Below, one piece after another: positions 2,587-26,105 of a DNA stretch of 36,320 bases (its first letter is position 1; every line of letters begins with the position of its first letter). Below the pieces are notes generated by a model. The model made no database searches. It was not told the origin of the DNA and saw only the letters and a list, made by a program, of their open reading frames with translations. The DNA comes from an uncultured bacterium (lineage in GTDB: Bacteria; CSSED10-310; CAZUFC01), in the NCBI GenBank assembly GCA_964619725.1, contig CAZUFC010000090.1, forward strand, positions 1 through 36,320, written 5' to 3'. Made by a program: the position numbers and the translations under genes.

Positions 2587-4393
2587 ATCATCACAATCGC
2601 ATAAACCCGCCACACTGAAGCGTATTACGGCGGCAAGCCTCATCTGGTGGATACTGGCGGCGGCAGTCGCTCTGCATGTCATCCTTATGCCCGCTCCGGG
2701 ATGGGAACGCGATCTCTACTGGCACGACGTCTGGATAAGGACATCACTCGAACACGGCATCGTCGAATTACATGAAAAAGTCTGGTGCGATTATCCACCG
2801 GGGTACCTTTATTTTTTAAACGGATTAGGAAGGGCCTGGACCGCGCTGTTAGGCGACCTTCCCCCGGAAAATTCCGTTTCTATGCTTTACATCCTTAAAT
2901 TCTGGGCTGTATTGTCCAACATAGCCGGCGCTTACATTCTTTATCGTCTGGCTAAAAAACATTTCAACCGCAAACGGGGATTGCTGATAGCGGCGCTTCT
3001 CGCTTTTAATCCAGCCCTGATATTCAACAGCGCAGTTTGGGGGCAGGTGGACTCTCTCCAGGGTTTGCTCGTAATCATCGCCTGCATGCTCGTCTGCGCC
3101 AGGCGTACTGCCTTGGGATTCGGGGTTTTAAGCCTGGTGATACTGATAAAATTCCAGGCCGTCGTTGTCCTTCCCGCCCTCGTGATGACGACATTTCATC
3201 TGAATAAAGGCCAGGGCATCAAAAAAGCTTATATCGGCACAGCCCTTTCTTCGCTCATTATCCTGTTGCCCTTCTATCTGGCGAATAAAACGGATTGGGT
3301 TATTCAAACAGCCTTCGGAGCATCCGGCAGATATCCCAAAATTTCCATGAACGCCTGGAACATCTGGTGGCTTGTCGGAGGAAAAGAATCGGTCTTTACT
3401 TCCGATGCCTACAGAATTGGAAACGGTCTCCTGAGCTACTACGGAACGGGCATGCTCCTGTTCGTGCTTATGACCGTGCTGATACTCATCCAACTCCGGC
3501 ATCGCCTTAAAAAGGAACACGTACGACCCGAATCAGCCCTTTTTACGGCATGCGCTTTAGAATTCATGGCATTCTACCTCTTTCCTACTCAGATGCACGA
3601 ACGCTACATCGTTCCATGCCTTTTCCCCCTGGCCGCTTCAATGATATACCGCCCGCGAAGGATATGGCTTTACGCACTCTGGTCTGTCGGGATCGCTCAT
3701 TCACTGGCGTCCACGCTGCGGGTGAGTTACCCTCACGGACTGGGACTCATAGGCGATGTTCTGGAAAAGGCCGATCTGATCAATACCGTTTTCCCCAAAA
3801 ATCGCGTGGATGCTTATGTCGGCAGCATTCTATTCATTCTGCTTTTTTTCTTAACCTTTATCTTTGTGAAAAAAATAAGATTTAACCTTAAACTTTTAAT
3901 TCCTGTAGCCCTTTTTCCATTGTTGGTTGGGGGCATTTCCGCTATTCCGATGAAAGGTTCCACGCTGCTTTCCGAATGGACCCCTGTCTATGCAAGTCAG
4001 GACTGGGGCAGTCTTCAAATAAACAAAACCGTCCTGGGAAAAAGACTCAACGCCGTGGGGTTCATTTTCAGACGCGGCATAGGAACTCATGCCGTTTCCG
4101 TGTTAAAATACCACCTCAACGGAGCCTTCAAAGAATTCGACGTATGCTATGCAAAAACACACTACAGAAAAACAAACGTAGTTTTCAGAATATCAGCCGA
4201 TTTTCCTGACGAACAGGCCGGTCTGAAACGAAAAATCCTTCATGACAGCGGTATAATCAATCGCCAGAAAACCCCAGTGCATGTCCGCGTCCCGGTAAAA
4301 AACGCGGAATTCCTGATACTCCAGGTCACCGACGGCGGAGATACCATTAACTCAGATCACGCCGCCTGGCTCGAACCGCTGCTTATTCGTTGA
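2579..4393 (+). CDS. GT-C mannosyltransferase-like (Gpi18/GT87-type) protein with C-terminal NPCBM/NEW2 carbohydrate-binding module
   Basis: Motifs CDYPPGYLY, NSAVWGQVDS and TQMHERY. C-terminal QDWGSLQINK..GIGTHAVS..DGGDTINSDHAAW is typical of NPCBM. Overlaps the upstream CDS by 8 nt. Confidence 0.75.
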   Translation: MNESSQSHKPATLKRITAASLIWWILAAAVALHVILMPAPGWERDLYWHDVWIRTSLEHGIVELHEKVWCDYPPGYLYFLNGLGRAWTALLGDLPPENSVSMLYILKFWAVLSNIAGAYILYRLAKKHFNRKRGLLIAALLAFNPALIFNSAVWGQVDSLQGLLVIIACMLVCARRTALGFGVLSLVILIKFQAVVVLPALVMTTFHLNKGQGIKKAYIGTALSSLIILLPFYLANKTDWVIQTAFGASGRYPKISMNAWNIWWLVGGKESVFTSDAYRIGNGLLSYYGTGMLLFVLMTVLILIQLRHRLKKEHVRPESALFTACALEFMAFYLFPTQMHERYIVPCLFPLAASMIYRPRRIWLYALWSVGIAHSLASTLRVSYPHGLGLIGDVLEKADLINTVFPKNRVDAYVGSILFILLFFLTFIFVKKIRFNLKLLIPVALFPLLVGGISAIPMKGSTLLSEWTPVYASQDWGSLQINKTVLGKRLNAVGFIFRRGIGTHAVSVLKYHLNGAFKEFDVCYAKTHYRKTNVVFRISADFPDEQAGLKRKILHDSGIINRQKTPVHVRVPVKNAEFLILQVTDGGDTINSDHAAWLEPLLIR

Positions 4394-10947: not shown

Positions 10948-13900
10948 ATGAAAAGATCAAATAATTATATTGCGCAAGTCGTAATGACGCTTTTTTTAGG
11001 GATTATAATGAGTTCGCTGGTTTTGGGACCATTTACAGGCTCGAATGACGGATCGGTGGCTTTTGGTGGGGACAGGGATATTGAACCGGAACCGAACGAT
11101 GACTGCTATTATGCTAATGAGATTCCGTCAGGTGTGTGTGTTTTCGGAACTATTAACGATTCCAGCGATCCGAGAGACTGGTGGTATTTCATTTACGGAA
11201 GCACACAGCAAGTAACCGTCGGTCTCCAGGTTCCCGACGGAGTGGACCTTGATCTATATGTTTGGGGAGGGATCGGAGACTGTCATGATAATTCTTTGTT
11301 ATGTTCTTCCCTTGCGGGGGGGTCTACGGATGAGGAATGCACTTTTACGCCGTATTATTCCGGCTATTATTATGTGGAGATTCGTCATTATTCAGGCAGT
11401 ACCTCCTACAATTATATGACGTGGTGGGACACGGGAAGCGCTCCGACGCCGACGAGAACGCCCACGGCGACGGCGACGACGCCTTCCGATACGGCGACGC
11501 CGACCCGAACGCCCACGAAGACCCCGACCAGGACCCCGACGAATTTCCCGGCAACGAGGACGCCTACGAGGACGCCTAGTCCGACGCCGACGGCGACTCA
11601 GCCGAGCGACACGGCGACGCCGACAAGGACCCCGACCAAGACGGCGACTCATACGCCTTCGGGGAATCCGACTTCGACGCCGACCCGGACGCCTACGCGG
11701 ACTCCAACGCCGACCAATTCGCCGACCAGGACCCCGACAATGGCGCCAACGCATCATGACGTGAAGGCGGTGTGCATCGAGACGGACCGCAGCGATCGCA
11801 TGTTCAACGGACCGCGGCCGCGTCAACCGGGCGACGTATATCTGCCGAGAGTATGGGTAGAAAATGTAGGCAATCAGATCGAATATGTGGATGCATCGAT
11901 CCAGGAGACGGTCACGGGATATTCCAGCAGCAATGCGTCACCCCATGTTCTATATCCGGGGGATTGCGTGCCTGTTGTGATGAGCGACATCTGGACGGTT
12001 CCTTCAATATGCGCGGGATATGAATTTACGGCATCGGTCACTATCGCCGAGGATTTCAATCCCATTAACAATTATACCGGTCCCAAATCGATGGAAGCGC
12101 CGCAGACGCCTTTCATGGAGCTGGCGTACGACAATGGGGCTGTAGCCAATTCTTATATTTTCGAAAACAACGAGAATTTTGCTTTAGCCAATGAATTTAC
12201 GCCGCCTTATTATCCGTGTTTCATCGATTACGTTAAAATTTACATGCAGCGCGGCGGAACGGAAGATTTCGATCAATTCTGGGTCGGTATTTGGCTGGAA
12301 GACTCGAATAATCCGGGATTTCCGGCGGCAAACCCTGTTTACATGGACTATCACGTATGGAGTCGCAACTATGAATCGCCTGAGGGCTGGGTGCATGTAG
12401 TTCCGCCATGCTATCCCGACAAGATACAGATCGATTCCGGAAAATTCTGGGTCGGCGTAGTGGACCCGTCCTCATGCACAAGCGTTTATTCTGATAAGGT
12501 AGGCGTCGATGCGGTAAGGGACCATGCGGCCAACTGGGTAAAGATACTGGGCGGCTGGCAGAAGAACCCCGCCTGGTGGGACGGCGACGGACTGGGCGAT
12601 CTGATGATACGGGCGGAGATAACCCTGGACATCGATCCTCCCGCCAATGATGATTGTGAAGATGCCGAGATCATCACCGAAAATGTTTACTCAGCAAACA
12701 TAAATACGTTCAATGCGTCGACTCAGCCTACAGACCCCAATCCGGCGTGCAACAACCAGTCCAACGCCAAAAGCGTCTGGTGGCATTGGACCGCTCCGAA
12801 TTGCGGCAAACTGATGGTGGAAACCTGCGAAACGGATTACCATACGATACTGAGTTTATGGTCGGGAAGCTGCGGAGACCTTTCTATGATAGCCTGCAAC
12901 GATTATAACGACGGAGTTTGCGGAACGGAAAACATCCGGTCGGGCATTGATGATTTCCCAGTGGCGCAAGGAAACGAATATTATATCATGGTTTCTGCGA
13001 TAAACGGCGACGGCGGCGAGCTTGACTTTGATTTTGAATTTACGCCGACCGACCTGCAGTCCATCTGCACGGTGGACGACAATACCCTGTGCGGCGATCA
13101 GACCGCTTCTTTAACATGCATCAGCTTCGGCTCCCATACGCCTTTGCAGTATTTCTGGTCTCCGACTCAATATCTTTCGGATTCTTCCTCACCTCAACCG
13201 GAGTTCGGTCCGGCGCCTCCCGGAGAATACGGCCCGTTTACCTGCACTGTCATGGATTCCTGGGGTTGCATGAAAACGTGTTCCCCTGGAATCACGATAT
13301 ACGTCTCCGATTATCCCGAAGTGAATGGATCGGCTGAAGAGAACGTATTATGCCGATACGAGACCACGACTCTGCACTGCAATGTGAATGGAGGAACTCC
13401 CGAATATTCCTATCAATGGAGTCCCGTCACTTACCTGGATGATCCGAATTCAGCCGACCCGGTATTCACTGCGTCTAACACGGGAACTTTCGGACCTTAC
13501 ACCTGTTCGGTCACCGACTCCGTCGGCTGCAGCGGACAGTCCCCGCAGTTGATCTTTATAGAGGTTAAACCCGTTCCAAACGTTTCCTGCTCGGTCAACG
13601 ATAACACGCTTTGTTCCGTCCATACCACGCAACTGCACGCAACGAACATCGGAGGAACGGCTCCTTTCACGTTTGAATGGACGCCGGCCAATTACCTGGA
13701 CGATCCTGCCGCCAGGGAACCAGTGTTCGGTCCGGCGCCGGCGGGCGAATACGGCCCCTACACCTGCACGGTTACCGATGCGAACGATTGCACTGATGCA
13801 TGCGATTCCGGCATAACCATAACCGTTTACGACAATCCTGCCGTCACCTGTTCCGCAGATGACGGTCAGATTTGCGAAAATGAAACCACTGTCCTTAACT

Positions 13901-14799
13901 GCAACGTAACCGGCGGAACGCCCGATTTCACCTACCAGTGGAACAACTCGACCTACCTGGACGATCCCAACTCGGCCAACCCCGTATTCGGCCCGGCCCC
14001 TCCAGGCAGACATGGACCCATTGCCTGCTCTGTCCTCGACGCCAACGGCTGCTCGGCAGGATGCTTCCCCGGCATTTTCGTCACCGTGAACCCGAATCCT
14101 TCCGCCATCACCGTCAGCGGACCGGAATCCATCTGTGAAGATGAATGCCCGGCCTTCCTCTGCGCCCCGGAGGGTTACGAGGAATACCTGTGGAGCAACG
14201 GCGAAGTAACCAGGCAAATAGCGGTATGCGTTACGGGCGATTATACCGTCACCGTCACCGATGATAACGGATGCAGCGGTACGAGCGACGTTCATCACCT
14301 GGAAGTCTTCCCCGAAGTCTTCGCTGACGCAGGCGACGACCAGGAGATAGTCCAGGGCGAATCCGTCCAGATCGGGGGTTCGCCGTCCGGTTCCGGGGGA
14401 ACCGAACCTCTCAGTTACGAATGGCTCCCCATAGAGGGACTGGACGATCCCAATATTTCCAATCCGATGGCATCACCCGATGCCACGACCCTCTACACAC
14501 TGATGGTCACCGATGCGAACCTCTGCCAGGCTGAAGACTCATGCACCCTCTTCGTCACCGTGCTGCCTACGGAAACGCCGACATTATCTCCTACTCCTTC
14601 GCCGACAACTACCCCAACTCTCGTTCCCACAAATACGCCTACTCTAACCCCAATATACACGCATACGCCGTCCGCTACACCCACTCTCATACCTATCCCC
14701 GCTGTCGGTCATTTCGGCTTATCCGGCTTGTTGATCATCTTCAGTCTTTTCCTGCTGAAATCAATGATCACAAAAGAAAACACTAACAGGCATGAATGA
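10948..14799 (+). CDS. Large secreted surface protein: PPC-like domain, Pro/Thr linker, beta-rich domains, six SprB/PKD-like Cys-rich repeats, PT stalk and IPTL-CTERM-like anchor
   Basis: Signal peptide; EPEPND..DLDLYVW (PPC-like); TPTRTPT repeats; PPANDDCEDA domain; repeats of GGTP-Y-Y-W-P--LDDP--P..TVTD-NGC; tail IPAVGHFGLSGLLIIFSLFLLK. RBS GAGAGGGG. Confidence 0.85.
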   Translation: MKRSNNYIAQVVMTLFLGIIMSSLVLGPFTGSNDGSVAFGGDRDIEPEPNDDCYYANEIPSGVCVFGTINDSSDPRDWWYFIYGSTQQVTVGLQVPDGVDLDLYVWGGIGDCHDNSLLCSSLAGGSTDEECTFTPYYSGYYYVEIRHYSGSTSYNYMTWWDTGSAPTPTRTPTATATTPSDTATPTRTPTKTPTRTPTNFPATRTPTRTPSPTPTATQPSDTATPTRTPTKTATHTPSGNPTSTPTRTPTRTPTPTNSPTRTPTMAPTHHDVKAVCIETDRSDRMFNGPRPRQPGDVYLPRVWVENVGNQIEYVDASIQETVTGYSSSNASPHVLYPGDCVPVVMSDIWTVPSICAGYEFTASVTIAEDFNPINNYTGPKSMEAPQTPFMELAYDNGAVANSYIFENNENFALANEFTPPYYPCFIDYVKIYMQRGGTEDFDQFWVGIWLEDSNNPGFPAANPVYMDYHVWSRNYESPEGWVHVVPPCYPDKIQIDSGKFWVGVVDPSSCTSVYSDKVGVDAVRDHAANWVKILGGWQKNPAWWDGDGLGDLMIRAEITLDIDPPANDDCEDAEIITENVYSANINTFNASTQPTDPNPACNNQSNAKSVWWHWTAPNCGKLMVETCETDYHTILSLWSGSCGDLSMIACNDYNDGVCGTENIRSGIDDFPVAQGNEYYIMVSAINGDGGELDFDFEFTPTDLQSICTVDDNTLCGDQTASLTCISFGSHTPLQYFWSPTQYLSDSSSPQPEFGPAPPGEYGPFTCTVMDSWGCMKTCSPGITIYVSDYPEVNGSAEENVLCRYETTTLHCNVNGGTPEYSYQWSPVTYLDDPNSADPVFTASNTGTFGPYTCSVTDSVGCSGQSPQLIFIEVKPVPNVSCSVNDNTLCSVHTTQLHATNIGGTAPFTFEWTPANYLDDPAAREPVFGPAPAGEYGPYTCTVTDANDCTDACDSGITITVYDNPAVTCSADDGQICENETTVLNCNVTGGTPDFTYQWNNSTYLDDPNSANPVFGPAPPGRHGPIACSVLDANGCSAGCFPGIFVTVNPNPSAITVSGPESICEDECPAFLCAPEGYEEYLWSNGEVTRQIAVCVTGDYTVTVTDDNGCSGTSDVHHLEVFPEVFADAGDDQEIVQGESVQIGGSPSGSGGTEPLSYEWLPIEGLDDPNISNPMASPDATTLYTLMVTDANLCQAEDSCTLFVTVLPTETPTLSPTPSPTTTPTLVPTNTPTLTPIYTHTPSATPTLIPIPAVGHFGLSGLLIIFSLFLLKSMITKENTNRHE
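11440..11751 (+). repeat. Intragenic Pro/Thr-rich low-complexity repeat ([22 protein letters not shown])
   Basis: Direct translation; ACGCCGAC-rich DNA. Confidence 0.9.
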
Positions 14800-14972
14800 T
14801 AAAGCCAAAAACAACGCTGTTAAAGCGTTAACCCCATTCAGATTCGTTAATTCGATGGTCAATGAACTATTGCGGATGAAATTGGCGGATGTTTTGCTTT
14901 GACTGTGAATAGTCCTGCATGCGCAATATCATTCTTTAGATTGGATCAAAATTTCGATATGGAGAGGTAACG

Positions 14973-16853
14973 TTAATCCCGTCTCATTTTTCGTAATATC
15001 AGGGCCCTGTTATGCTGTGCTTTATAATTGTTCTCATCCATTGAAAGAACTTTATTGTAATATTTGAGCGCTTCATCGAATTTTCCCAGTCGTGCTTTCA
15101 CATTGCCCATATCCAAATAAAAAACAGGCTCGTCCGGCTTATTCCGCAATTCAATACCCAAATGCTTTTCCGCCTCCGCATACTTTTTCACCTGTATCAA
15201 CGCTCTGGCGTAGTCATAGTGAAGTCCAGGTCGACCAGCATCGGAAATCAAAACTTTTTTTAAATATGACACGGCTTCTTCCGGCTTAATTGAGATCAGC
15301 AATTCTCCCAAATGATGAAGAAATCGAGGATTCTCCGGTTCTTTCGCCAACGCCAGGCGGTAATACTTTTCAGCTTCGCCCTTCTTATCAATCATATGAA
15401 GGCTTAATGCGAGATTAAAAAGGGTTTCAACTTTAGCGGACCCCATATCCAGCGCTTTTTTAAATTCTTTTGAAGCAGAAATAAAATCGCTTTTTTTAAA
15501 ATACAAAAAACCAAGATTATAATGCCGTTCAGCCGTATCGCCGACAACATATCCCAGGGCTTCCAGTTTTCTTTTTCCATAAGAGTCTTCAGCTTCTTCA
15601 AGCCATTCTTCACCTTCTCCGGTCTCTCGCTGTTGCCCGTAATCAGGAATTCTTGGGGGCGAGGAACTTTTTAAAAAAGGTTCAATTGCCTGTCCCGGCA
15701 TGTTTTCAGCGGCCGGTAAACCAAAAAAATTTAAAATGGTCGGGGCGATATCCATAACAGACAAGGGATTGTCCCTGTTTGAAGTTTCGAAACCGGGACC
15801 CAGGCCCAGAAACATGCCTTCAATCAGGTGACTTTCTATGCCGGCCAACGGATTCTCTTTGCGGCCTGAAGGCGGATTCGCCCTCCATTTGAAGCCATGA
15901 TCAGATATAATCATGACATACGTATCAGCCTCGGCTTCATTGAAAATCTTCTCCAGCCAACTGTCCTGAAAAGAAAAATACGGCAGGAGGATTTCCTCCG
16001 CAGTTTTTGCTTCCTCGGATGCTCTTTGGGGCAGATAATAACGGTTGAAAAGATGTCCGAGCGTATCGGTTCCCTGCAGATAGAGAGTGAAAAATTCAGT
16101 GCGGGCCTTTTCAAGCAGATGAAGGGCCGCCTTGCCGTACTCTTCCGTCTGGTTGTATGTCGCCCATAATTGTTCTGAAGGATATACTTTCCTCATACCG
16201 TTTTCTTTCTTAATGGTTTTTGATAACGGGACAGCCGGCCAGGGTCCTGAGTCCGTCCGTTCCCGGTGTTGCATCAATTCCCCGTAAAGATCAGATGGAT
16301 ATGCTATTCGCTTTTTCGGCATGCTGAATTCATCCATTCCCAGTATGTGAGGGCGATACCGATCAGTGACCATGAATCCGTTGATGCTTTCTGCAGGCCA
16401 TGTCGCCCACCAACCTATTACCGTACATCCTATCCCGCGCTCGCTCAGTATATTCCAGACAGAGGGAACCTTCTTGAACCAGGACGTTATGGGGATTTCT
16501 TCACCCGTTTCCGGGTGAACTGCCATAAAATCCGTTATCCCATGGTCAGTCGGCTCGCGCCCTGTGGCTATCGACGTCCAGATTAAAGGAGAAATCATAG
16601 GTTCAAATGAATGAAATTGCGCTTTTAATCCCCTTTCATGCAGACTCTGAAATACAGGAATTCGACCCATCCGCATCAACGGCGTGAAATTCCTCCAGTC
16701 AGCGCCGTCTAATCCCAGAACCCATAATTCCCCTGAAGAATCCTCAGTCGGACAGCGACATCCGATCTTCCATACGATCAACAGCAAAACGACAATCACA
16801 AACAGACAAATCAGATTTTTTTTGTTTGATCTTCGAAATATTGCCCTTAACAT
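14973..16853 (-). CDS. Alkaline-phosphatase superfamily (NPP/phosphodiesterase-like) protein with C-terminal TPRs
   Basis: LGLDGADW, EPMISPLIWTSIATG..HGITDF, TDTLGH, ISDHGF, DIAPTIL, LEALGYV, followed by several TPRs. N-terminal membrane anchor. Confidence 0.85.
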   Translation of the reverse strand: MLRAIFRRSNKKNLICLFVIVVLLLIVWKIGCRCPTEDSSGELWVLGLDGADWRNFTPLMRMGRIPVFQSLHERGLKAQFHSFEPMISPLIWTSIATGREPTDHGITDFMAVHPETGEEIPITSWFKKVPSVWNILSERGIGCTVIGWWATWPAESINGFMVTDRYRPHILGMDEFSMPKKRIAYPSDLYGELMQHRERTDSGPWPAVPLSKTIKKENGMRKVYPSEQLWATYNQTEEYGKAALHLLEKARTEFFTLYLQGTDTLGHLFNRYYLPQRASEEAKTAEEILLPYFSFQDSWLEKIFNEAEADTYVMIISDHGFKWRANPPSGRKENPLAGIESHLIEGMFLGLGPGFETSNRDNPLSVMDIAPTILNFFGLPAAENMPGQAIEPFLKSSSPPRIPDYGQQRETGEGEEWLEEAEDSYGKRKLEALGYVVGDTAERHYNLGFLYFKKSDFISASKEFKKALDMGSAKVETLFNLALSLHMIDKKGEAEKYYRLALAKEPENPRFLHHLGELLISIKPEEAVSYLKKVLISDAGRPGLHYDYARALIQVKKYAEAEKHLGIELRNKPDEPVFYLDMGNVKARLGKFDEALKYYNKVLSMDENNYKAQHNRALILRKMRRD

Positions 16854-17091
16854 TCTGTCCCCTCATCAATGGAAAAACTCCGATGATTCAGCCGGAATTT
16901 AATATACATTACTTTTTTCAAGAACTCATTATTCAAAGTTTTTTTCGGAAAAATTGTTTTGCCCTTGACTTTTTGAAAAATAACCTTAATAAAGATAAGG
17001 AGTGGAACGGTGAATTTCATGATTAAAATGTTTTTGAAGTCAGATTCACACAAAAAATTCAAATTAACATAAGAACTTGGAGGGGGCTAAA

Positions 17092-18864
17092 ATGGTAATG
17101 AAAAAAATTTTATTTCTCAATGTGATGGGCATGGTGATCGGCCTATTACTTTCACCAGCGCTGTTTAGTGCGGAGCAGGATTTTTCAGGCGGCGGCGGTG
17201 TGATGGGATCGGAATTGCGTCCTGCCACTGAACCGCAGGAATTTTCTGCCGACGATCTGGCTGAGCTTGAAGCCAGACGCGAAGCGGTAGAGAGAGGCGA
17301 AACCAAGGTAGTTGAGGCGCCGGCTCCGATATTCAAAGGAGAAGCTCACCCGGAAAAAAAAGTTGTTGATGAATGGGGTCTGGATGAATTGATGGAAGGC
17401 GAAGCCGGCAAGGGATGGTCTTTCTATGACGGCGCTATGTGTTACGCCGTAACGGGATACCCTTACAATCCGAATCCTGAGATTTACAAAATGAGAAGCA
17501 CCTACGGCAGTATTTACGCCTGGCATCATCTAAGGAACACGAGCGGTTCGTGGACGTACCGGGTTCAATTTGATTTACCGCCGTTTTACGGGGGCAGCAC
17601 CTGGGACACTGGAACCACGACATACAGCGGCAGTTATTATTGGTATAAGGCTTGGTGGGGTTGGTATTTTAGCGGATATTCCAATTCGAATTATGACGGG
17701 ATATGGCAAGCCAGGCAATATATCGACGGCAGCAATCAATGGTCTTCGCCCTGGACCTTGCGATTCGAGCTTGACGATGATCCTTACAGTACAAGCGATT
17801 CATCGCATACGATGTGTACAGGCCTATCGGGCGACGATCCGGTCAATCCGGGGACATCGACGTTTTATTATTACCAGGATGCGGCTTACAATTGGGTACG
17901 TTTCGACGACGTAGCCGAAGCGATTGATTTCAAATGGCGCTGGTACAGACCCGGCGGAACGTTCGACTGGGAATATACAAACAATCAAAGCGATCCCGGG
18001 ACCAACTCGTGGTACGGCTGGGTAAAGGCCTGGTGCTGGCGAGACCTGGACGGATATATGTATCAATTTCCCGGAACGTGGACCGTGAATTTTTATACTT
18101 ACAACACCTATTACAACAATTGGACATACCGTTTCGACGACACATTCACAGTCGTAGGTCCGCCCACTAATACTCCGACGCGAACCCCGACGAAAACGCC
18201 GACCAGGACACCGACGAAAACGCCGACCAGGACGCCGACAAAAACGCCGACCAGAACACCGACCTCCACGCGGTCTCCAACCAGAACGCCGACATATACG
18301 CTAAGTCCGACCAGAACACCCACAGCAACGCTCAGTCCCACACGAACGCCGACTGTGACCCTCAGTCCGACCAGGACCCCAACAGCCACTCTCAGTCCCA
18401 CCAGGACGCCTACTGCGACGTTGTCGCCGACGAGGACTCCCACTGTGACTTTGTCTCCAACATTGAGTCCCACTTTATCGCCTACGCTATCACCGACGAT
18501 GTCGCCTACTCTTTCACCGACGGTCACGTTATCTCCCACAGCGTCCCCAACTCTATCGCCCACGCTTTCACCGACCTCATCGCCGACTCTCTCACCAACG
18601 GTCACATTATCTCCTACAGCCTCCCCGACGCTTTCACCGACACTTTCACCTACTGTAACGCTCTCGCCTACGATGAGCCCCACTTTATCGCCGTCTATGT
18701 CTCCCACGCTCACACCTACTAACACGCCCGAAGAAACTGCCACACCGACGGTAACTCCTACTATTCCGCCGATTCCTGCTTTCGGCTCGACTGGCTTGGG
18801 AATTCTACTGGCGTTGTTCTCACTCGGTTTAATAGGAGCTTTAAAACGCAAACAAAATAAGTAA
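17092..18864 (+). CDS. Secreted Trp/Tyr-rich surface protein with tandem beta-domain duplication, long PT/TLSP stalk and IPTL-CTERM-like anchor
   Basis: RBS GGAGGGGG precedes ATG 17092 (the ORF track start at 17077 is TTG). Signal peptide; 22 Trp before the stalk; tail [30 protein letters not shown]. Confidence 0.85.
18160..18771 (+). repeat. Intragenic tandem repeats encoding (TPTRTPTK)n, ([11 protein letters not shown])n and (TLSP)n
   Basis: Direct translation of about 200 aa of Thr/Pro/Ser-rich sequence. Confidence 0.92.
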
Positions 18865-18891
18865 AAATTCATCAAATTAAACTGACAACAT

Positions 18892-18926
18892 GGGGAATCC
18901 GGGAAATGCCTGCGGTTCCCCTTTTT
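18892..18926 (+). terminator. Intrinsic terminator after the Trp-rich surface protein gene
   Basis: GGGGAA..TTCCCC stem followed by TTTTT. Confidence 0.7.
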
Positions 18927-19154
18927 AATAGCTCTGTCGATCTGCAAAAAAACTCTTCCCTTTCATTCTCTGTGCCGGCAGAATCCTTTCAGGAAATAGA
19001 CAGCGCCGATTGCATGATCGAATTGTTTTCTGATACACTGTCGTTGCTTCAAAGGGGGGAGGCGCAGGCATAAGCAGGTGATTCTTCATTTTTCAAATTA
19101 CGGTAAGCTCAGAGGAAATGTTCTTTTTGTAAATTTACCTGAATCAATTATCGA

Positions 19155-21062
19155 ATGATGAAACATTCTGACGCGAATTATAAAATTCCGAATAAAAGCG
19201 AGTTTTCCGGAATTCGTGGGATAAACCGATTATCGGCTGCAATACAATCTTTTTTGATTATTTTGCTTTCAGGATATCTTTGGTCCGGATGCGGCAATCA
19301 CCAGGACCCTGAAAAACTCAATTTATTATTAATCGTTATCGATACCTGCCGGGGAGATGCCCTTTATGCTTCAGGTCAGAACGAAGCTCTGACACCCAAC
19401 CTGGACCGGTTATGCCGGAAGGGCGCATTATTTGAGAACTTCACTGTCAACACGCCTCACACCGTACCTTCTCACTGCTCTTTATTGACCGGCCTGATTC
19501 CTGCAGTGCACAAAGTGAGATCGACAGGCGGGACAGCCCTGTCAGACAATGCGGTGACGCTGGCTGAACGGTTGAATGAGCAGAATTATGATTGCCGTGC
19601 TTTCGTCAGCGCTTCCGTTCTCAATAAAAATTATGGATTTTCTCAGGGTTTTGATTTCTATGATGAGGTCCTGCCGCAGCAAAATGAAGGAGTCCATTCA
19701 ACCTGGATGTCTATCGAAGGACGCCCCGTCAACGTGCTTTTTCATGAACGTTCCTCCATTGAAACTAACCGCCGTGTTTTTCAATCTCTCCATTCCAATC
19801 CAGTAGAATCACCTTTTTTTATCTGGGTTCACTATTTTGATCCACATTTTCCTTATTTCCCCCTACCGCCGTATGGTTTGAGATTCGACAACCCTTATGA
19901 CGGAGAAATCGCCGCCACGGATAAAGCCTTGGGAATGCTTCTCCATCGATTCCTGGAACTGGGACTCCTTGACGATACGATTATAGTCGTAACTTCAGAC
20001 CACGGTGAAAGTCTGGGAGAACACGGCGAACAGGAACATGGCCTGCTGTTGTTCAACTCAACGATAAAAACTTTCCTGATTTTAAACGGACCCGGAATAC
20101 CTCAAAACAGGATCATCAGCGATCCCTATGGACAGACCGACGTTATGCCGCTCCTGTTGAATTTGCTTGAAATAAACTCCCCCACAGTTTCAGGCTTCAA
20201 TCCGTTCGACGGTCGGACAAGAACAGACAAAGAGCTCATCAGGGCAAGCTATTCCGAGACGATGGACCCTGTGAACAGGTACGGATGGAGCCCTCTGATT
20301 ACTCTCACGGAGAATAACTGGAAATACATCCATGCCCCGCTTCCCGAACTTTATGATCTGGCGACCGATCCGGCGGAGCGGCATCCCGTAAAGGGATACG
20401 AAAATATCAAGCAAAAAATGGCCGGCGAAGTAGATTCTTTTTTAAAACTGAACGAGGATTCGTCCGGATTCGTCGAAATCCAGGACTTATCATCTCAGCA
20501 AATCGCGCAGCTTGAGAAACTGGGCTATGTGGCATCAACCAAACCTGCCGAAATGAGTTTCGACGGCGGCAATCCCATGAGTCTCATAATGGCGCATTAT
20601 TATCATAGCGAAGCGCAGAAAGCGCTCAGTCAGGGAGCCGGTCAAAGCGCAGAGGCATTTTTTGAAAAAGCGCTGGAGATAGACCCCGAAAATGCAGAAA
20701 TTCTCTCTGAATTCGGCGGGGCATTGCTTCGGCTGGGTAAGGTCCGGGAAGCGCAGAAAATACTGGAAAAATCGTTGGAAATCGATCCGTTACATTTTAA
20801 TGCGTTATTGCGGCTGGGGCATTGCGCCTATAAACTGGATCATTCCAGACTCGCAGAAAATTACTACCGTAAATTGCTGGAAATTATTCCGAATCACGCG
20901 GAAGGACATTTCTCCCTGGCTGTGGTTTATGCTGAAAGGGCTGAATATGATGCTGCTGAAATGCATTTTCATAAAGCGCTTGAACTGGAAACGAACGAAA
21001 GAAGTCTGCTCCATCAGAAAGCTCTATCAGCATTGACGAGAATCCAAAAAGAAAAATCGTGA
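19155..21062 (+). CDS. Sulfatase-fold hydrolase/transferase (probable lipoprotein) with C-terminal TPRs
   Basis: LIVIDTCRGD, TVPSHCSLLTG, HYFDPHFPY, TSDHGESLGEHGEQEHG, ELYDLATDPAE, LEKLGYV, then TPRs. Lipobox-like WSGC. Confidence 0.88.
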   Translation: MMKHSDANYKIPNKSEFSGIRGINRLSAAIQSFLIILLSGYLWSGCGNHQDPEKLNLLLIVIDTCRGDALYASGQNEALTPNLDRLCRKGALFENFTVNTPHTVPSHCSLLTGLIPAVHKVRSTGGTALSDNAVTLAERLNEQNYDCRAFVSASVLNKNYGFSQGFDFYDEVLPQQNEGVHSTWMSIEGRPVNVLFHERSSIETNRRVFQSLHSNPVESPFFIWVHYFDPHFPYFPLPPYGLRFDNPYDGEIAATDKALGMLLHRFLELGLLDDTIIVVTSDHGESLGEHGEQEHGLLLFNSTIKTFLILNGPGIPQNRIISDPYGQTDVMPLLLNLLEINSPTVSGFNPFDGRTRTDKELIRASYSETMDPVNRYGWSPLITLTENNWKYIHAPLPELYDLATDPAERHPVKGYENIKQKMAGEVDSFLKLNEDSSGFVEIQDLSSQQIAQLEKLGYVASTKPAEMSFDGGNPMSLIMAHYYHSEAQKALSQGAGQSAEAFFEKALEIDPENAEILSEFGGALLRLGKVREAQKILEKSLEIDPLHFNALLRLGHCAYKLDHSRLAENYYRKLLEIIPNHAEGHFSLAVVYAERAEYDAAEMHFHKALELETNERSLLHQKALSALTRIQKEKS

Positions 21063-21089
21063 CTTTTTTTTACGACCGATATACCTTTA

Positions 21090-23417
21090 TTGTTCATGAA
21101 GCTGTTAAACCGTTTTCCTGACAAAAAAATATTTCCTGTCATCGTTATCCTACTTTTAACCGGTTTCTTCGCCGTTTCATTTACCTCGGCATTAAAAAAA
21201 TCTCCTGTATGCGATGAATACGCAGCGCACGTCCCCAGCGGCTGGTCCTATTGGAAAAGAGGCGTTTTTTGCGGCGGTCTTGACAATCCTCCCTTGATTC
21301 AACTACTAGTCTCCCTTCCCCTGGCCCTTACTCAATCTCCTTTCGACCCTTCCGATGCCTCCGCAGTCATATATCCACGCACAATCATGATCCTGATGAC
21401 TCTCGCCCTGGCCGTTCTTCTTTTCGCACAGGCTCGACGTTTGTATTCCAGGTTAGCCAGCCTTATGGTTCTTGTTATATTTCTTTTTGAACCGAATATC
21501 CTGGCCTACTCACGGGTCGCCGTCACGGACATGGGTTTTACCTGTTTCGCCTTCACCTCCTTCATCCTCCTCGTCCGCTATCTTGAAAAACCTTCTCTCA
21601 AACGATGCATAGCAGCAGGCTGCCTTTTCGGAGCAGCAGCCGCTTCCAAATTCACTGCCTCATGGCTTGTCTTGAATTTTTTGGTTCTCACGATAATCGA
21701 TATTTTTCGGAAAAAAAACGACGCCGGCAAGGACTTCATACGAATTCTGAAAAAATTTTCCCTCCATGCTTTAATTTATGCCGCTTGCGCTCTATTTATT
21801 TTAAACAGTTTATATCTCTTCCAGGGCGCCGCTCGGTGGAATAAAGTCCCGCCGGTCTATGTACAAGAGGTGTTAGGGAGTCATTCACAGGCAGTTCTTC
21901 ACTTACTGAACGCCGGCGCCTTTTTTCTCCCTGAATTATATGTCAAGGGACTTTTGAATGTTTATTATCACGCCCGGCACGGTCATCAAAGCTACCTGTT
22001 CGGCGAGAGGTCGATTGAAGGTTGGAGTTATTATCATTTGATCGCCTTCCTCCTGAAAAGCACTGTTCCATTCCTGATATTAACGGTTCTCGCATTATCC
22101 GGCAGTATCTACAACTTCAAAAACAGGACAGCATTCATCGAACGCTATTCTCTCATCAACGCCGGACTGTTTTTCTGTTTTATTTCATTTTTCGGAATCA
22201 ACATCGGCATTCGACACGTTTTGCCTGTGTTTCCATTTTTGATTCTTTCTTTTGGAAACATTCCAGATTTTTTGAACAGGCTTTTTCGTTTTTTAAAAAA
22301 ACCTTATATCGCTTCCATATCGGTTTTTTCATGTCTGACGATTCTCCATGCAGCATCTTCCTTAAGCGTTTATCCGCATTTTATCAGTTATTTCAATTTA
22401 CTGGCAGGAGGACCGGAAAACGGCAGCGAATTCCTCCTTGATTCGAATATCGATTGGGGCCAAAACGATCTTCTGCTGGAAAAGAAACTGGAGGAATTAA
22501 ATCACCCTGTCGCTATTAATCCTGAAAAACCCCAAACAGGCTGGACGGCCGTAAACGTCAACCGTTTGAAAGGCCTCCTGGCGGAACAAGCTGAAGATTT
22601 TCTCTGGTTGGACGGCTACCCTACAGCGTTTCAAGTCGGTTATACCTGGAATTTCTACAACATAGACATTCAAAGCTATAATGAATTCGCTCGCCGTTCG
22701 GGTTCCAAGGCCTATCATCTCTGGGCGCTGGGTCTGATGTCCCTGGAAGAGGACGATGAGGAGAAGGCGATACTCCTCCTGGAGAAGGCCGTACAAAAAT
22801 CACCCATCAATTCGAAAATAGTGGAATCCTACGTGGATGCCGCTCTCGAACTCGGATTGTTCGATAAAGCATTGCAAGCCGCTCAGAAAATTTCTACGCT
22901 GGAACAAAAAAAATACACTCTTGCGGAAGAAATAGAAATATGCAGAAAATTACAAAGGGAACCCCAAAACGCAGAATACTGGAACAACCTGGGAGTCGTC
23001 AGGAATCAACTGAACCGGCTCAAAAAAGCCTATGAAGCTTACAGTAAAGCTGTCGAAATCCGGCCGAAATTCGCCAATGCCTACTATAACCGTGCCTATC
23101 TTCACTTTCATACGGGCAATCCTGAAAAAGCAGAGAAAGATGTTATGACTGCTTTGATGCTTACCACAGGATTCGAGGATGCCGAAATACTGGCGAACAA
23201 CATACAGACCGTGAAAAATGCATTGGGAAGCTCGGATCCGAAGGCGCAATATTTTTTGGGTAATTATTACGCCTCCGCCGGTAAATTTAGCAAAGCTATG
23301 GAATACTTCTTCTCATCATTCCGTCAAATGCCCGATTGTGAAAACTGCCTTCTGGCTTACGGTGAATTATACGTCGCTTTAAAATTACGTACAAAAATGA
23401 ATAAATATCTTTTTTAA
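21090..23417 (+). CDS. PMT/ArnT-like (GT39/GT83) membrane glycosyltransferase with C-terminal TPRs
   Basis: First-loop SPVCDEYAAH, NPPL, EPNILAY..VTD, ASKFTA, GIRHVLPVFP, LLDSNIDWGQ, then TPRs (YWNNLGVV, AYYNRAYL). Start is TTG 21090 or ATG 21096. Confidence 0.82.
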   Translation: MFMKLLNRFPDKKIFPVIVILLLTGFFAVSFTSALKKSPVCDEYAAHVPSGWSYWKRGVFCGGLDNPPLIQLLVSLPLALTQSPFDPSDASAVIYPRTIMILMTLALAVLLFAQARRLYSRLASLMVLVIFLFEPNILAYSRVAVTDMGFTCFAFTSFILLVRYLEKPSLKRCIAAGCLFGAAAASKFTASWLVLNFLVLTIIDIFRKKNDAGKDFIRILKKFSLHALIYAACALFILNSLYLFQGAARWNKVPPVYVQEVLGSHSQAVLHLLNAGAFFLPELYVKGLLNVYYHARHGHQSYLFGERSIEGWSYYHLIAFLLKSTVPFLILTVLALSGSIYNFKNRTAFIERYSLINAGLFFCFISFFGINIGIRHVLPVFPFLILSFGNIPDFLNRLFRFLKKPYIASISVFSCLTILHAASSLSVYPHFISYFNLLAGGPENGSEFLLDSNIDWGQNDLLLEKKLEELNHPVAINPEKPQTGWTAVNVNRLKGLLAEQAEDFLWLDGYPTAFQVGYTWNFYNIDIQSYNEFARRSGSKAYHLWALGLMSLEEDDEEKAILLLEKAVQKSPINSKIVESYVDAALELGLFDKALQAAQKISTLEQKKYTLAEEIEICRKLQREPQNAEYWNNLGVVRNQLNRLKKAYEAYSKAVEIRPKFANAYYNRAYLHFHTGNPEKAEKDVMTALMLTTGFEDAEILANNIQTVKNALGSSDPKAQYFLGNYYASAGKFSKAMEYFFSSFRQMPDCENCLLAYGELYVALKLRTKMNKYLF

Positions 23418-23567
23418 AAAATACTTATGGGATCAAAGATCAGCATTTTCTTCCAAAACAGTTTTTCTAAGAATCAACGTTTCGCTGAGCAACAGCACGA
23501 AGAAGCTTCAAAAAAAACAGCGCCGGTTTAAATTTTATTTTGTTCAGCGCCGATTTTTCTCTCAGAA

Positions 23568-26105
23568 TTATTGATTCTTTTCCAGTTTATTCAGATATTC
23601 CAGAAATTCCGTCGAGGGTTTCAAACCCAGCTGCAAGGCTTTCTTCAGATGAGTCCTGGCTCTTTCGACGTCCGGTTCAGCCAATTTAGCGTAATAAACG
23701 GCCAGATTATTGTGAGCATCGCGGTCCTGGGGATTCAGATCAAGGGCGATCAACCATTGAGATTCAGCTTTCTTGTATTGGCCTGTTTTCAATAGAGCGA
23801 CCCCATAGGCTGTATGAATGCCGGGCGCATGAGGTTCGAGATTAAGCGTGATCCGGTATTGTTCTGCTGCTTCCTCATATTGTTCGAGAGAGGACAGAAG
23901 AAGGCCATATTTTGCATGTAACAGTGGATTCCAAGGTTTTATTTTAATGTGTTTTTCATACAGGCCTGCGGCGGCGTCATAATCGCCTTCTAATATCATT
24001 ATTTCCGTTAATTGAAATAAAGCTTCATTGAAAAAGGGATCGATCTGAAGGACCTTGTGAAACCATTCCGAGGCTTGTTTTGTATCGTTTTGTTCCAGCG
24101 TAGTTACTCCCAATGAATATGCTTCCCGCGCTTTCATGATTCTGTCGCGGACATCCAGAACAGCCGAATCGGAATAATTGTTTTCGATATCGACGAATAA
24201 TGATAAATCGAATAACAGCGGAGAACGTCCTTCGAAGAAAACAGAGTCGTAAGAATTGGGAAAAAGGCGGTAAATTCTGTAGAACGAATTCTGAAAAACA
24301 AGCCTGAAATGGACTGGCTTGCTGGGTTCGAAATGTAATTGAAAAACAGTGAATTTTTCATCAAGATTAAGTCGATCGACCAGGTATCTGGCTGAAAATT
24401 TGGACCGGTCAAGCATAAAATCAGCCGGAAGAATGATATAATCGACTTCATTCTCCCTGCAGAACTGATATAAAGCATCCTCATCCTTTGAAAATAAAGC
24501 TCTCAGGGATATTTCAACTTTTCGCCGAATAACGGCGGATTCAAACATGGGATGAAGAGTTACAGGTCGACCGGCATATTCGAATATGAAAGGACTCATG
24601 CTGAAGGGGGCAAGGAAGACATCTTCATCGGTCGTGTTCCTCGATATCCAGGAAAGGAGCTTCACCTCATCGTTCATGGTCTGGAAAACCGGAGGGCCGG
24701 CGTTCGCTTCGGTCATACTCATAATTTCTTTGAAAGCAGACGTTTGGGTATATGTCGAGAAAAAATATAACTCGAAGATAATCAATCCGACGCATATCCA
24801 TTTCCATTTACGTTTTCGTCCTGATCGGGAATTTCCGATCAGTCCTGCCGTCCAGAAAGCGGCAAAAAAGGACAGGGGAATCATCATACGATCGAAAATA
24901 ATGTACAGAAACGTAAAAATCACCAGCATGCAACCCATTATAATTGCATTGATCTTTTTCCTTTTTTCTTTTCTGAGGATGGTTTTAAGAAATCCGGTCC
25001 ACCCGAACGCCATCAGCACACCCATATAGTACAGGGCCTGCAGTGGATGCGGAGATGTCCACGGTCCCATCCAGAATACTCGGGAATCAAACGAGAGGGC
25101 GGCGGGGTCTTCAGGTTTCAAATTGAAATGTAATATCTTGTCTGCGATGAGTTTGAAGGCATGTCCATAAGCTTCGTACCGGCTGAAAGTCAGGAATGAT
25201 GCTGCGCCGAGGATTACAGCGCCTGCTGCTGCTGTGCCCAGGAGGGTTTTCCTGTTTGCAATTTTTTTTCTGAGTAAGTATACGATGACCACCAGCCATC
25301 CGGGAATCATGTTAAAAGAAAGGAGAAACCATCGAGAACGTAAATGGGGAAAAAACAACGATCCGAGAGCAACTCCGAAAATTATAAGAGAACACTTTTT
25401 TGCAACCTGCTCTTCAACATGCTCCCTAAAACAAATGATCAAAAGCGCCAGGCAATAAAGAAACCATAAAAATTGGGACATATGCCACGAACCCAAGGTA
25501 ATCAGAAGTAGTATGACGGTAAAAAACAGTTCTATGGTCCTTCTGCCTTTTCTGAAAGATAATAAAGTAAACAGGATGGCTCCATAGAAGAAAGGGAGCG
25601 TGAAGTTTTCCCGCAGGTAACTGCCTACTGTCCTGACGAAGGAAGGCAGGCTGAAGGTCCACAATGCAGCGGCAGTTAAAGCGGCGAACAGGCTGGGGAA
25701 TAATCTTAAAACGGTGAAATACAGAGGAAAAATCGTCATTGAGGAGGTTAAACAGGTACACAGTATCACCAGGTCTTGAAAATCATAGTTATCTGTCCTG
25801 GTTTCAAGAAGCCGGCCCAGCATCCCCGGAAGATATTCCATAAAAATAGTGAGCTCTTCCCGGGTATCGACTCCTTCAGGATATTGCAACCTCTTGTCGA
25901 TTTCCGGTATCTCTTTTCCCTCTGCAATGAGTCTGGCGTAGTGATAATGCACTGCGCTTTCGCTGAAAAACAACCCCGCTCCGCCGGCGCTTCTTCTGGA
26001 ATTTAAGCCTGAATAGTAAACCTGTACAGAGAAAAGAATAAAAAACAGGATGAGCGGGAGAGCTAAATGGATGAAAAACAAATTATTTTTCGATTTAACT
26101 TTCAT
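23568..26105 (-). CDS. DPY19-like (GT98/STT3 clan) GT-C glycosyltransferase with C-terminal TPRs
   Basis: FSE49SAVHYHY, D-RLQYPEGVD, YLRENFTLPF, SWHMSQF, WISRNT--DVFLA..RPVTLH518PMFE, VDYIIL. No WWDYG motif. TPRs from about aa 660. Confidence 0.75.
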   Translation of the reverse strand: MKVKSKNNLFFIHLALPLILFFILFSVQVYYSGLNSRRSAGGAGLFFSESAVHYHYARLIAEGKEIPEIDKRLQYPEGVDTREELTIFMEYLPGMLGRLLETRTDNYDFQDLVILCTCLTSSMTIFPLYFTVLRLFPSLFAALTAAALWTFSLPSFVRTVGSYLRENFTLPFFYGAILFTLLSFRKGRRTIELFFTVILLLITLGSWHMSQFLWFLYCLALLIICFREHVEEQVAKKCSLIIFGVALGSLFFPHLRSRWFLLSFNMIPGWLVVIVYLLRKKIANRKTLLGTAAAGAVILGAASFLTFSRYEAYGHAFKLIADKILHFNLKPEDPAALSFDSRVFWMGPWTSPHPLQALYYMGVLMAFGWTGFLKTILRKEKRKKINAIIMGCMLVIFTFLYIIFDRMMIPLSFFAAFWTAGLIGNSRSGRKRKWKWICVGLIIFELYFFSTYTQTSAFKEIMSMTEANAGPPVFQTMNDEVKLLSWISRNTTDEDVFLAPFSMSPFIFEYAGRPVTLHPMFESAVIRRKVEISLRALFSKDEDALYQFCRENEVDYIILPADFMLDRSKFSARYLVDRLNLDEKFTVFQLHFEPSKPVHFRLVFQNSFYRIYRLFPNSYDSVFFEGRSPLLFDLSLFVDIENNYSDSAVLDVRDRIMKAREAYSLGVTTLEQNDTKQASEWFHKVLQIDPFFNEALFQLTEIMILEGDYDAAAGLYEKHIKIKPWNPLLHAKYGLLLSSLEQYEEAAEQYRITLNLEPHAPGIHTAYGVALLKTGQYKKAESQWLIALDLNPQDRDAHNNLAVYYAKLAEPDVERARTHLKKALQLGLKPSTEFLEYLNKLEKNQ

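Follow-up and report, generated by a model that had tools for sequence, protein, structure and literature searches.

Does a run of six consecutive genes in an uncultured bacterium of the phylum CSSED10-310 form a dedicated pathway for glycosylating its own surface proteins? The window analyzed here is the entire contig CAZUFC010000090.1 (36,320 nucleotides; C90 of a 9.17 Mb genome, G000, with 91% completeness and 6.5% contamination). An earlier note, made from the letters alone, read the genes at 10948..26105 as a candidate self-contained locus in which two anchored substrates (g1 and g3) are modified by four enzymes ending in tetratricopeptide repeats (TPRs): the alkaline phosphatase (AlkP)-fold proteins g2 and g4 and the GT-C glycosyltransferases g5 and g6. 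We conclude that the six genes are probably not a dedicated pathway but a loose cluster, specific to this lineage, of members of a cell-surface programme that spans the genome. Components of that programme are scattered throughout the genome and comprise ~200 sorting-signal proteins, one detected exosortase, ~100 GT-C genes, ~80 AlkP-fold genes and dolichyl-phosphate-mannose (Dol-P-Man)-synthase-like genes. The DPY19-like gene g6 is real and worth an assay, and the locus is not self-contained.

To place the six genes against their background, each gene class was counted among the 6454 called genes of the genome, with sorting-signal proteins recognized by a profile built from the genome's own C-terminal tails (E <= 0.001). 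There are 206 sorting-signal proteins, 97 GT-C genes (95 PMT_2 and two Dpy19) and 81 AlkP-fold genes; 22 GT-C and 7 AlkP-fold genes are fused to TPRs. A Pro/Thr/Ser-rich window is found in 132 of the 193 sorting-signal proteins of at least 200 aa, and g1 and g3 are two of the 206. Inspection of gene neighborhoods reveals no enrichment of either enzyme class within two genes of sorting-signal proteins (12 of 97 for GT-C, 11.3 expected; 9 of 81 for AlkP-fold, 10.0 expected). GT-C genes do lie near AlkP-fold genes more often than expected (13 versus 5.1, a level reached in 1 of 300 rotations). That is to say, the coupling between GT-C and AlkP-fold enzymes proposed in the earlier note is borne out by gene linkage in this genome and by gene fusions in two others, while its two anchored substrates do not stand apart from the other proteins of their kind.

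Neighborhood conservation, the check that the earlier note had itself proposed, gave a negative answer. The six-gene arrangement is repeated in none of 38 DPY19-like loci (11 from metagenomes, 26 from genome records and one from the phylum genome G026) and in none of 15 phylum regions, which surround the top phylum hits for g2, g3 and g5. The search patterns for the DPY19-like loci select subfamilies other than that of g6, whose nearest relative is ~32% identical. Neither a signal-tail match, with a tail profile specific to the host lineage, nor an AlkP gene was found in the 38 loci, and a Pro/Thr/Ser scan of their neighbors was positive for 1 of 286. Another GT-C gene is present in 4 of the 38 by BLAST, and Pfam adds two more (54 chosen of the 286 neighbors). 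Three of the four BLAST-positive loci (L032, L033 and L046) place a GT-C+TPR gene tail to tail with the DPY19-like gene, as in g5/g6; they share one gene order and their GT-C belongs to a different family. The remaining neighbors are unrelated and include RadC, MFS, ChaN, radical SAM and TrkH. Pfam detected Dpy19 in none of 13 further genomes of the phylum, where a DPY19-like family profile gave weak partial matches only. In one phylum region, a g5 relative, itself a fusion of g5-like and sulfatase domains, does have a sorting-signal protein 3.4 kb away.

The layout of the genes points the same way (Table 1). The six consecutive open reading frames (ORFs) and the domains that the earlier note assigned to them agree with the ORF list and with Pfam, and its placing of the four enzymes in the envelope holds up, each being a GT-C or AlkP-fold protein that ends in TPRs. 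It was also right that the window has neither an exosortase nor a polyprenol-phosphate-sugar synthase: none matched among 14 ORFs searched against Pfam and 9 against NCBIfam, and all genome-wide matches to these families lie on contigs other than C90. What did not stand is the unity of the arrangement, whose families are common genome-wide and whose genes run + - + + + - with intergenic gaps of 173, 223, 290, 27 and 150 bp. The hairpin after g3 (-19.2 kcal/mol, z -2.59) is matched by 3 of 200 shuffles, and a consensus terminator scan missed it. Given the mixed strands, the gaps, and the hairpin with its U-run, g1-g6 would fall into about five transcription units, with g4-g5 as the sole operon-like pair and probably co-transcribed. 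A public contig spanning 11356-27500 agrees with zero differences and even depth, although it may be the source sample itself.

Table 1. Genes g1-g6 and the hairpin within the run, in window coordinates
Feature	Position	Strand	Basis or content
g1, secreted modular protein, 1283 aa	10948..14799	+	PPC-like, galactose-binding-like, PKD/SprB-like stretches
g2, AlkP-superfamily (Phosphodiest) + TPR, 626 aa	14973..16853	-	Pfam
g3, secreted Trp-rich protein with Pro/Thr/Ser stalk and C-terminal sorting signal, 595 aa	17077..18864	+	
Terminator-like hairpin + U-run 3' of g3, between g3 and g4	18892..18926	+	Folding versus shuffles
g4, sulfatase-fold (Sulfatase) + TPR, 635 aa	19155..21062	+	Pfam
g5, GT-C glycosyltransferase (PMT_2/PMT) + TPR, ~775 aa	21090..23417	+	Pfam
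g6, DPY19-like GT-C (Dpy19) + TPR, 845 aa	23568..26105	-	Pfam

The enzyme that gives this locus its interest is g6, which scores 84.6 bits against Dpy19 (PF10034; cut-off 27.2). Its nearest solved fold is DPY19, and all of its close structural relatives (DPY19, STT3, AglB and PglB) are protein glycosyltransferases. Residues of g6 were mapped to CeDPY19 by sequence alignment rather than by superposed coordinates, and conservation was counted in 137 relatives. In this mapping, Glu49, Arg158, Trp207, Arg406, Trp349 and Phe521 correspond to CeDPY19 Glu71, Arg211, Trp262, Arg471, Phe401 and Tyr578, and all six positions are kept in 108 of the 137. The equivalent of the catalytic Glu71, Glu49, is Glu in 129 and Asp in 8. 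Among the donor-binding equivalents, Arg406 is Arg in 123 and Lys in 14, Trp207 is kept in 136, and Met407 stands for Leu472. The pocket for Trp(0) matches CeDPY19 at Trp349 (Phe, Tyr or Trp in most relatives), Phe521 and Pro519 (Pro576), and the equivalent of Tyr395 is either Phe344 or the invariant Trp345, depending on alignment register. The clamp for Trp(+3) is a different matter: Arg158 is kept in 125 of 137, whereas Lys473 is replaced by Met408 in g6 and is Lys or Arg in only 8 of 137, such that the Arg211/Lys473 pair as a whole is absent from g6. The earlier note's DPY19-like label for g6 holds, by sequence, down to the catalytic residues.

Other GT-C assignments fit g6 less well. The oligosaccharyltransferase WWD motif is found in 0 of the 137 relatives, LRE stands where the Rx6DNE motif has DNE, and DUF1736 of the TMTC enzymes is not matched in g5 or g6 (E 0.01-0.05). 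The genome's second DPY19-like gene, on C17, belongs to a clade distant from g6 and has a sulfatase-fold gene on one side and, on the other, housekeeping genes that we take to be engB, clpP and tig. Two of the compared loci (L049:645-4598 and L060:5994-9911) hold DPY19-like ORFs of ~1310 aa, in which ~600 extra N-terminal residues match no Pfam family and reflect either a fusion or a start called too early.

Is g3 a substrate of g6? Both g1 and g3 carry Pro/Thr-rich stretches and an IPxxxxxG-transmembrane-basic C-terminal tail. The Trp-rich domain of g3 consists of two repeats, with a weak DUF2914-like lead, and its WxxW motifs are WWGW at 193 and WYGW at 312. Two or more such motifs arise in 51% of 5000 shuffles of this 21-Trp domain, which places them at chance level. 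Both motifs also have a bulky residue (Trp or Tyr) at +1, where, according to the CeDPY19 structure paper, only small side chains are admitted and a bulky one would clash. The same holds at the scale of the surface proteome. WxxW occurs 89 times across the 193 sorting-signal proteins against 110 expected, with no small-residue preference at +1, and NxS/T is not enriched in the surface proteins either (2125 observed, 2169 expected). The tie between g6 and g3 is proximity alone and nothing further. A better candidate substrate for g6 is a 2330-aa sorting-signal protein on C12 (103849-110841, + strand), which contains three repeats each with WxxWxxW and an Asp-box-like SxDxGxxW, 14 WxxW in total and no Pfam family over cut-off, though its Trp residues may be structural.

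As sites for O-glycans, the Thr-rich stalks ahead of the sorting signals are plausible, in keeping with the earlier note and with a proposal made in a preprint for Thr/Ser-rich regions in this position (bioRxiv 10.1101/2023.06.07.544157). The g3 stalk (aa 363-562) holds 72 T, 29 S and 45 P in 200 aa, while g1 has Pro/Thr-rich linkers at ~aa 166-268 and ~1209-1250 and a single WxxW (WWHW, aa 611). The closest paralogues of g1, on C113 (53-60% identical) and C6 (92% over the N-terminal domain), have no enzyme of the GT-C or AlkP classes within four genes. The N-terminal domain of g1 (10948-11450) is 92% identical to part of the sorting-signal protein at C6:20285-22030, which points to domains having been shuffled recently between surface proteins.

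Anchoring and donor supply also lie elsewhere in the genome. The one exosortase detected is on C134, adjoining a sorting-signal protein; it is short, most resembles XrtH/ArtB and, with a score of 76.6, falls below the exosortase H (XrtH) cut-off of 86. All 14 phylum genomes examined have an exosortase. The surrounding segment (C134:12339-16587) consists of the exosortase, a membrane gene downstream of it that belongs to no known family, and the adjacent sorting-signal protein. Because only 2 tails genome-wide pass the IPTL-CTERM (TIGR04174) cut-off, those of g1 and g3 not among them, the sorting signal appears to be a variant with ~200 targets; the g1 and g3 tails match the profile built from the genome's own tails. 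A GT2 protein of 240 aa on C66, flanked by GT-C genes, matches the Dol-P-Man synthase 5mlz at E 2.7e-35 and is a putative polyprenol-phosphate-sugar synthase. It sits in an operon-like run of GT-C genes (C66:9000-24000), and a similar GT2 lies at C11:74365-75090. With mixed strands, no conserved synteny in the loci compared, and the exosortase and synthase-like genes on other contigs, the description of the locus as self-contained falls away.

For g5, the evidence on assignment to the PMT class is divided. The DE motif (D42, E43) is nearly invariant in 102 sequences and aligns with that of Pmt1, although this motif is common to ArnT-type GT-C enzymes as well, and the family sequence profile matches only Pmt1 (E 1.9e-11) and Pmt2 among solved structures. 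Fold matches to Pmt4 (E 1.2e-6) and ArnT (E 6.8e-6) are about tied, and PMT_4TMC (PF16192) was not found in g5 or anywhere in the 91%-complete genome, whereas a control Corynebacterium genome scores. Given the genome-wide absence of PMT_4TMC and the tied fold matches, g5 is not callable as a PMT. Its 245 relatives among 8000 scored sequences include several named ones annotated as ArnT-like, and the family has a conserved C-terminal motif of its own, DSNIDWGQ. In the phylum genomes G005 and G011, which belong to one family, the g5 relative and a TxPSH sulfatase-fold domain form a single fused protein (L102:8964-12230 and L103:2-2512), and this sulfatase-fold domain is not the closest relative of g4.

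Both g2 and g4 keep the AlkP fold and its metal-binding motifs. In g4, a lipobox-like WSGC (Cys46) precedes Thr103, which occupies the sulfatase CxPxR position within TVPSH (103-107), and the formylglycine motif C/S-x-P-x-R is not present. In g2, an N-terminal hydrophobic segment carries Cys32, and Ser88 stands where phosphonoacetate hydrolase has its nucleophile. None of the genome's 81 AlkP-fold genes matches a CxPxR...TG pattern and 24 have TxP[SA][HF], which suggests that this large sulfatase-fold set probably does not consist of formylglycine sulfatases. AlkP-fold enzymes with a Thr or Ser nucleophile, such as EptA and LtaS, can transfer phospho-substituents, and by analogy g2 and g4 may do so themselves. 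Paired AlkP-fold matches on C36 and C117 have identical scores and lengths, suggesting a duplicated segment or redundancy of the bin.

How might such a programme operate? We infer that the ~200 surface proteins would be exported and anchored through the exosortase, while outside the cytoplasm many GT-C enzymes would work in trans, drawing on polyprenol-phosphate sugars from synthases encoded elsewhere. Within the window, g4 and g5 probably act as a pair on one glycoconjugate: g5 would add a sugar, and g4, through its Thr nucleophile, would attach or remove a phospho- or sulfo-substituent. Independently placed, g6 would most likely use Glu49 as the base and move one hexose from polyprenol-phosphate to a peptide of a protein that has just been exported and is still unfolded. 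Foremost among the candidate acceptors are aromatic residues, Trp for instance, in a sequon that probably departs from classic WxxW. Both g1 and g3 may carry glycans on their Thr stalks like more than 100 other such proteins, and would not be special clients of the neighboring enzymes.

Several observations weigh against a loose cluster and for the dedicated locus of the earlier note, in which g5 would O-mannosylate the g1 and g3 stalks, g6 would C-mannosylate Trp of g3, g2 and g4 would decorate the glycans, and the TPRs would recruit both substrates. At six genes, this run is the longest of such classes in the genome, a length reached by 0 of 300 label shuffles and by 15 of 1000 rotations that preserve clustering within classes, which is still unusual, though the classes were picked after the locus had been seen. 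It contains 2 of the genome's 7 AlkP+TPR genes. TPRs end all four enzymes (four TPR genes within six are reached in 32 of 500 shuffles), and the four enzyme genes share a low G+C content at third codon positions (0.45-0.48, the genome's 7th-18th percentile; most neighbors 0.53-0.63), a weak hint that could mean shared history. For g3, Trp content ranks 4th among the 193 sorting-signal proteins and both WxxW are retained in its only homologue; that homologue keeps 16 of 22 Trp overall, not just these motifs. The phylum region with the g5-like/sulfatase fusion near a sorting-signal protein can be counted here as well. In addition, only 18 of 37 DPY19-like loci have at least two genes on each side, and recent synteny would be beyond view because the nearest genomes compared share only the phylum. 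Set against these points are the mixed strands and hairpin, the gene order missing from every compared locus, the chance-level motifs with their bulky +1 residues, the g1 paralogues that lack such neighbors, and TPRs of g2, g4, g5 and g6 of which none is another's closest relative. Given the shuffles and rotations, with GT-C/AlkP as the only enrichment, the run is mildly unusual and its sole repeated link is enzyme to enzyme. We regard the dedicated locus as very unlikely; the enzyme classes, the DPY19 likeness and the GT-C/AlkP link survive from that interpretation, and the locus with its own substrates does not.

A different account directs the enzymes to lipids or glycans: g5 would act like ArnT on lipid A, another glycolipid or a polysaccharide, g4 and g2 would be EptA/LtaS-type transferases or hydrolases, g6 would be repurposed for a non-peptide acceptor, and g1 and g3 would be bystanders. 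The g5 fold and its ArnT-like relatives, the missing PMT_4TMC, the Thr/Ser nucleophiles that suit phosphotransferases, the lost Lys473 equivalent in g6 and the lack of WxxW enrichment are all consistent with this account. It sits poorly with the family profile of g5, with a g6 whose close structural relatives all modify proteins, with the great number of Thr-rich surface proteins in this genome, and with TMTC1-4, where TPR tails on GT-C enzymes accompany protein acceptors (PMC7801869); on balance, we find it unlikely. Somewhat better placed, though still doubtful, is a reading in which g6 is an active bacterial Trp C-glycosyltransferase acting in trans with a relaxed sequon, while g5 and g4 O-glycosylate and then substitute the Thr stalks of ~200 exosortase-anchored proteins; its g6 family would comprise at least several hundred clusters across uncultured phyla. 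The loose cluster remains our preferred explanation of the six genes.

Comparison with known systems shows where these proteins depart from them. Relative to DPY19 (CeDPY19, PDB 7ZLG-7ZLJ, PF10034), g6 is bacterial, ~13% identical, and carries C-terminal TPRs, as do 106 of 137 relatives; its function is predicted from sequence, Lys473 is not kept, and its candidate substrates are not enriched in WxxW. Because only one Cys is conserved, the tethering disulfide of DPY19 is probably missing. STT3, AglB and PglB differ from the g6 family in their WWD and DNE motifs, and NxS/T is not favored in the host surface proteins. g5 resembles Pmt1/2/4, the actinobacterial PMT and ArnT in its PMT/PMT_2 domain and in a DE motif that follows the first membrane helix, yet it lacks PMT_4TMC and has its own DSNIDWGQ motif and TPRs, and with Pmt4 and ArnT tied its acceptor may be of either class. 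The order of GT-C then TPRs recalls TMTC1-4, but without DUF1736 and with 22 occurrences in this genome. The motif-transmembrane-basic tails, Thr-rich stalks and short XrtH/ArtB-like exosortase recall the exosortase H/IPTL-CTERM system, from which the host differs in the few tails over the cut-off and in the lower exosortase score. Unlike sulfatases, AlkP phosphodiesterases and phosphoform transferases, g2 and g4 combine TPR tails with Ser88 and Thr103, respectively, and no CxPxR.

The locus itself is of little weight, being a sample of families common in this genome; what the window contributes is the negative result on the neighboring "substrates" and the coupling of GT-C with the sulfatase fold. 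C-mannosylation has been described as limited to metazoa and alveolata (PMC6801728), and the accessible portions of two reviews mention no bacterial enzyme (PMC12990085, PMC8433626). Our literature search, with subscription papers and supplements outside its scope, found no publication on bacterial DPY19-like enzymes, while prokaryotic GT-C+TPR homologues of TMTC have already been noted (PMC7801869). A bacterial DPY19-like enzyme with an intact catalytic core permits a direct test of that restriction and of the origin of DPY19. If g6 were an active Trp C-glycosyltransferase, protein C-glycosylation would not be confined to animals and alveolates. Because this genome encodes a Dol-P-Man-synthase-like protein as well as many anchored proteins rich in Thr, it offers both a donor and candidate acceptors for reconstitution.

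Elsewhere in the window, positions 319-4393 hold two further multi-pass genes; one product (755 aa) matches no family, and the other (604 aa) is ALG3/GT87-like and includes an NPCBM domain. The gene at 33315-36149 encodes a secreted protein of 944 aa that contains an InhA-like MAM stretch and weakly matches M36 and MXAN_5808-type peptidases; its C-terminus has no IPxxxxxG tail.

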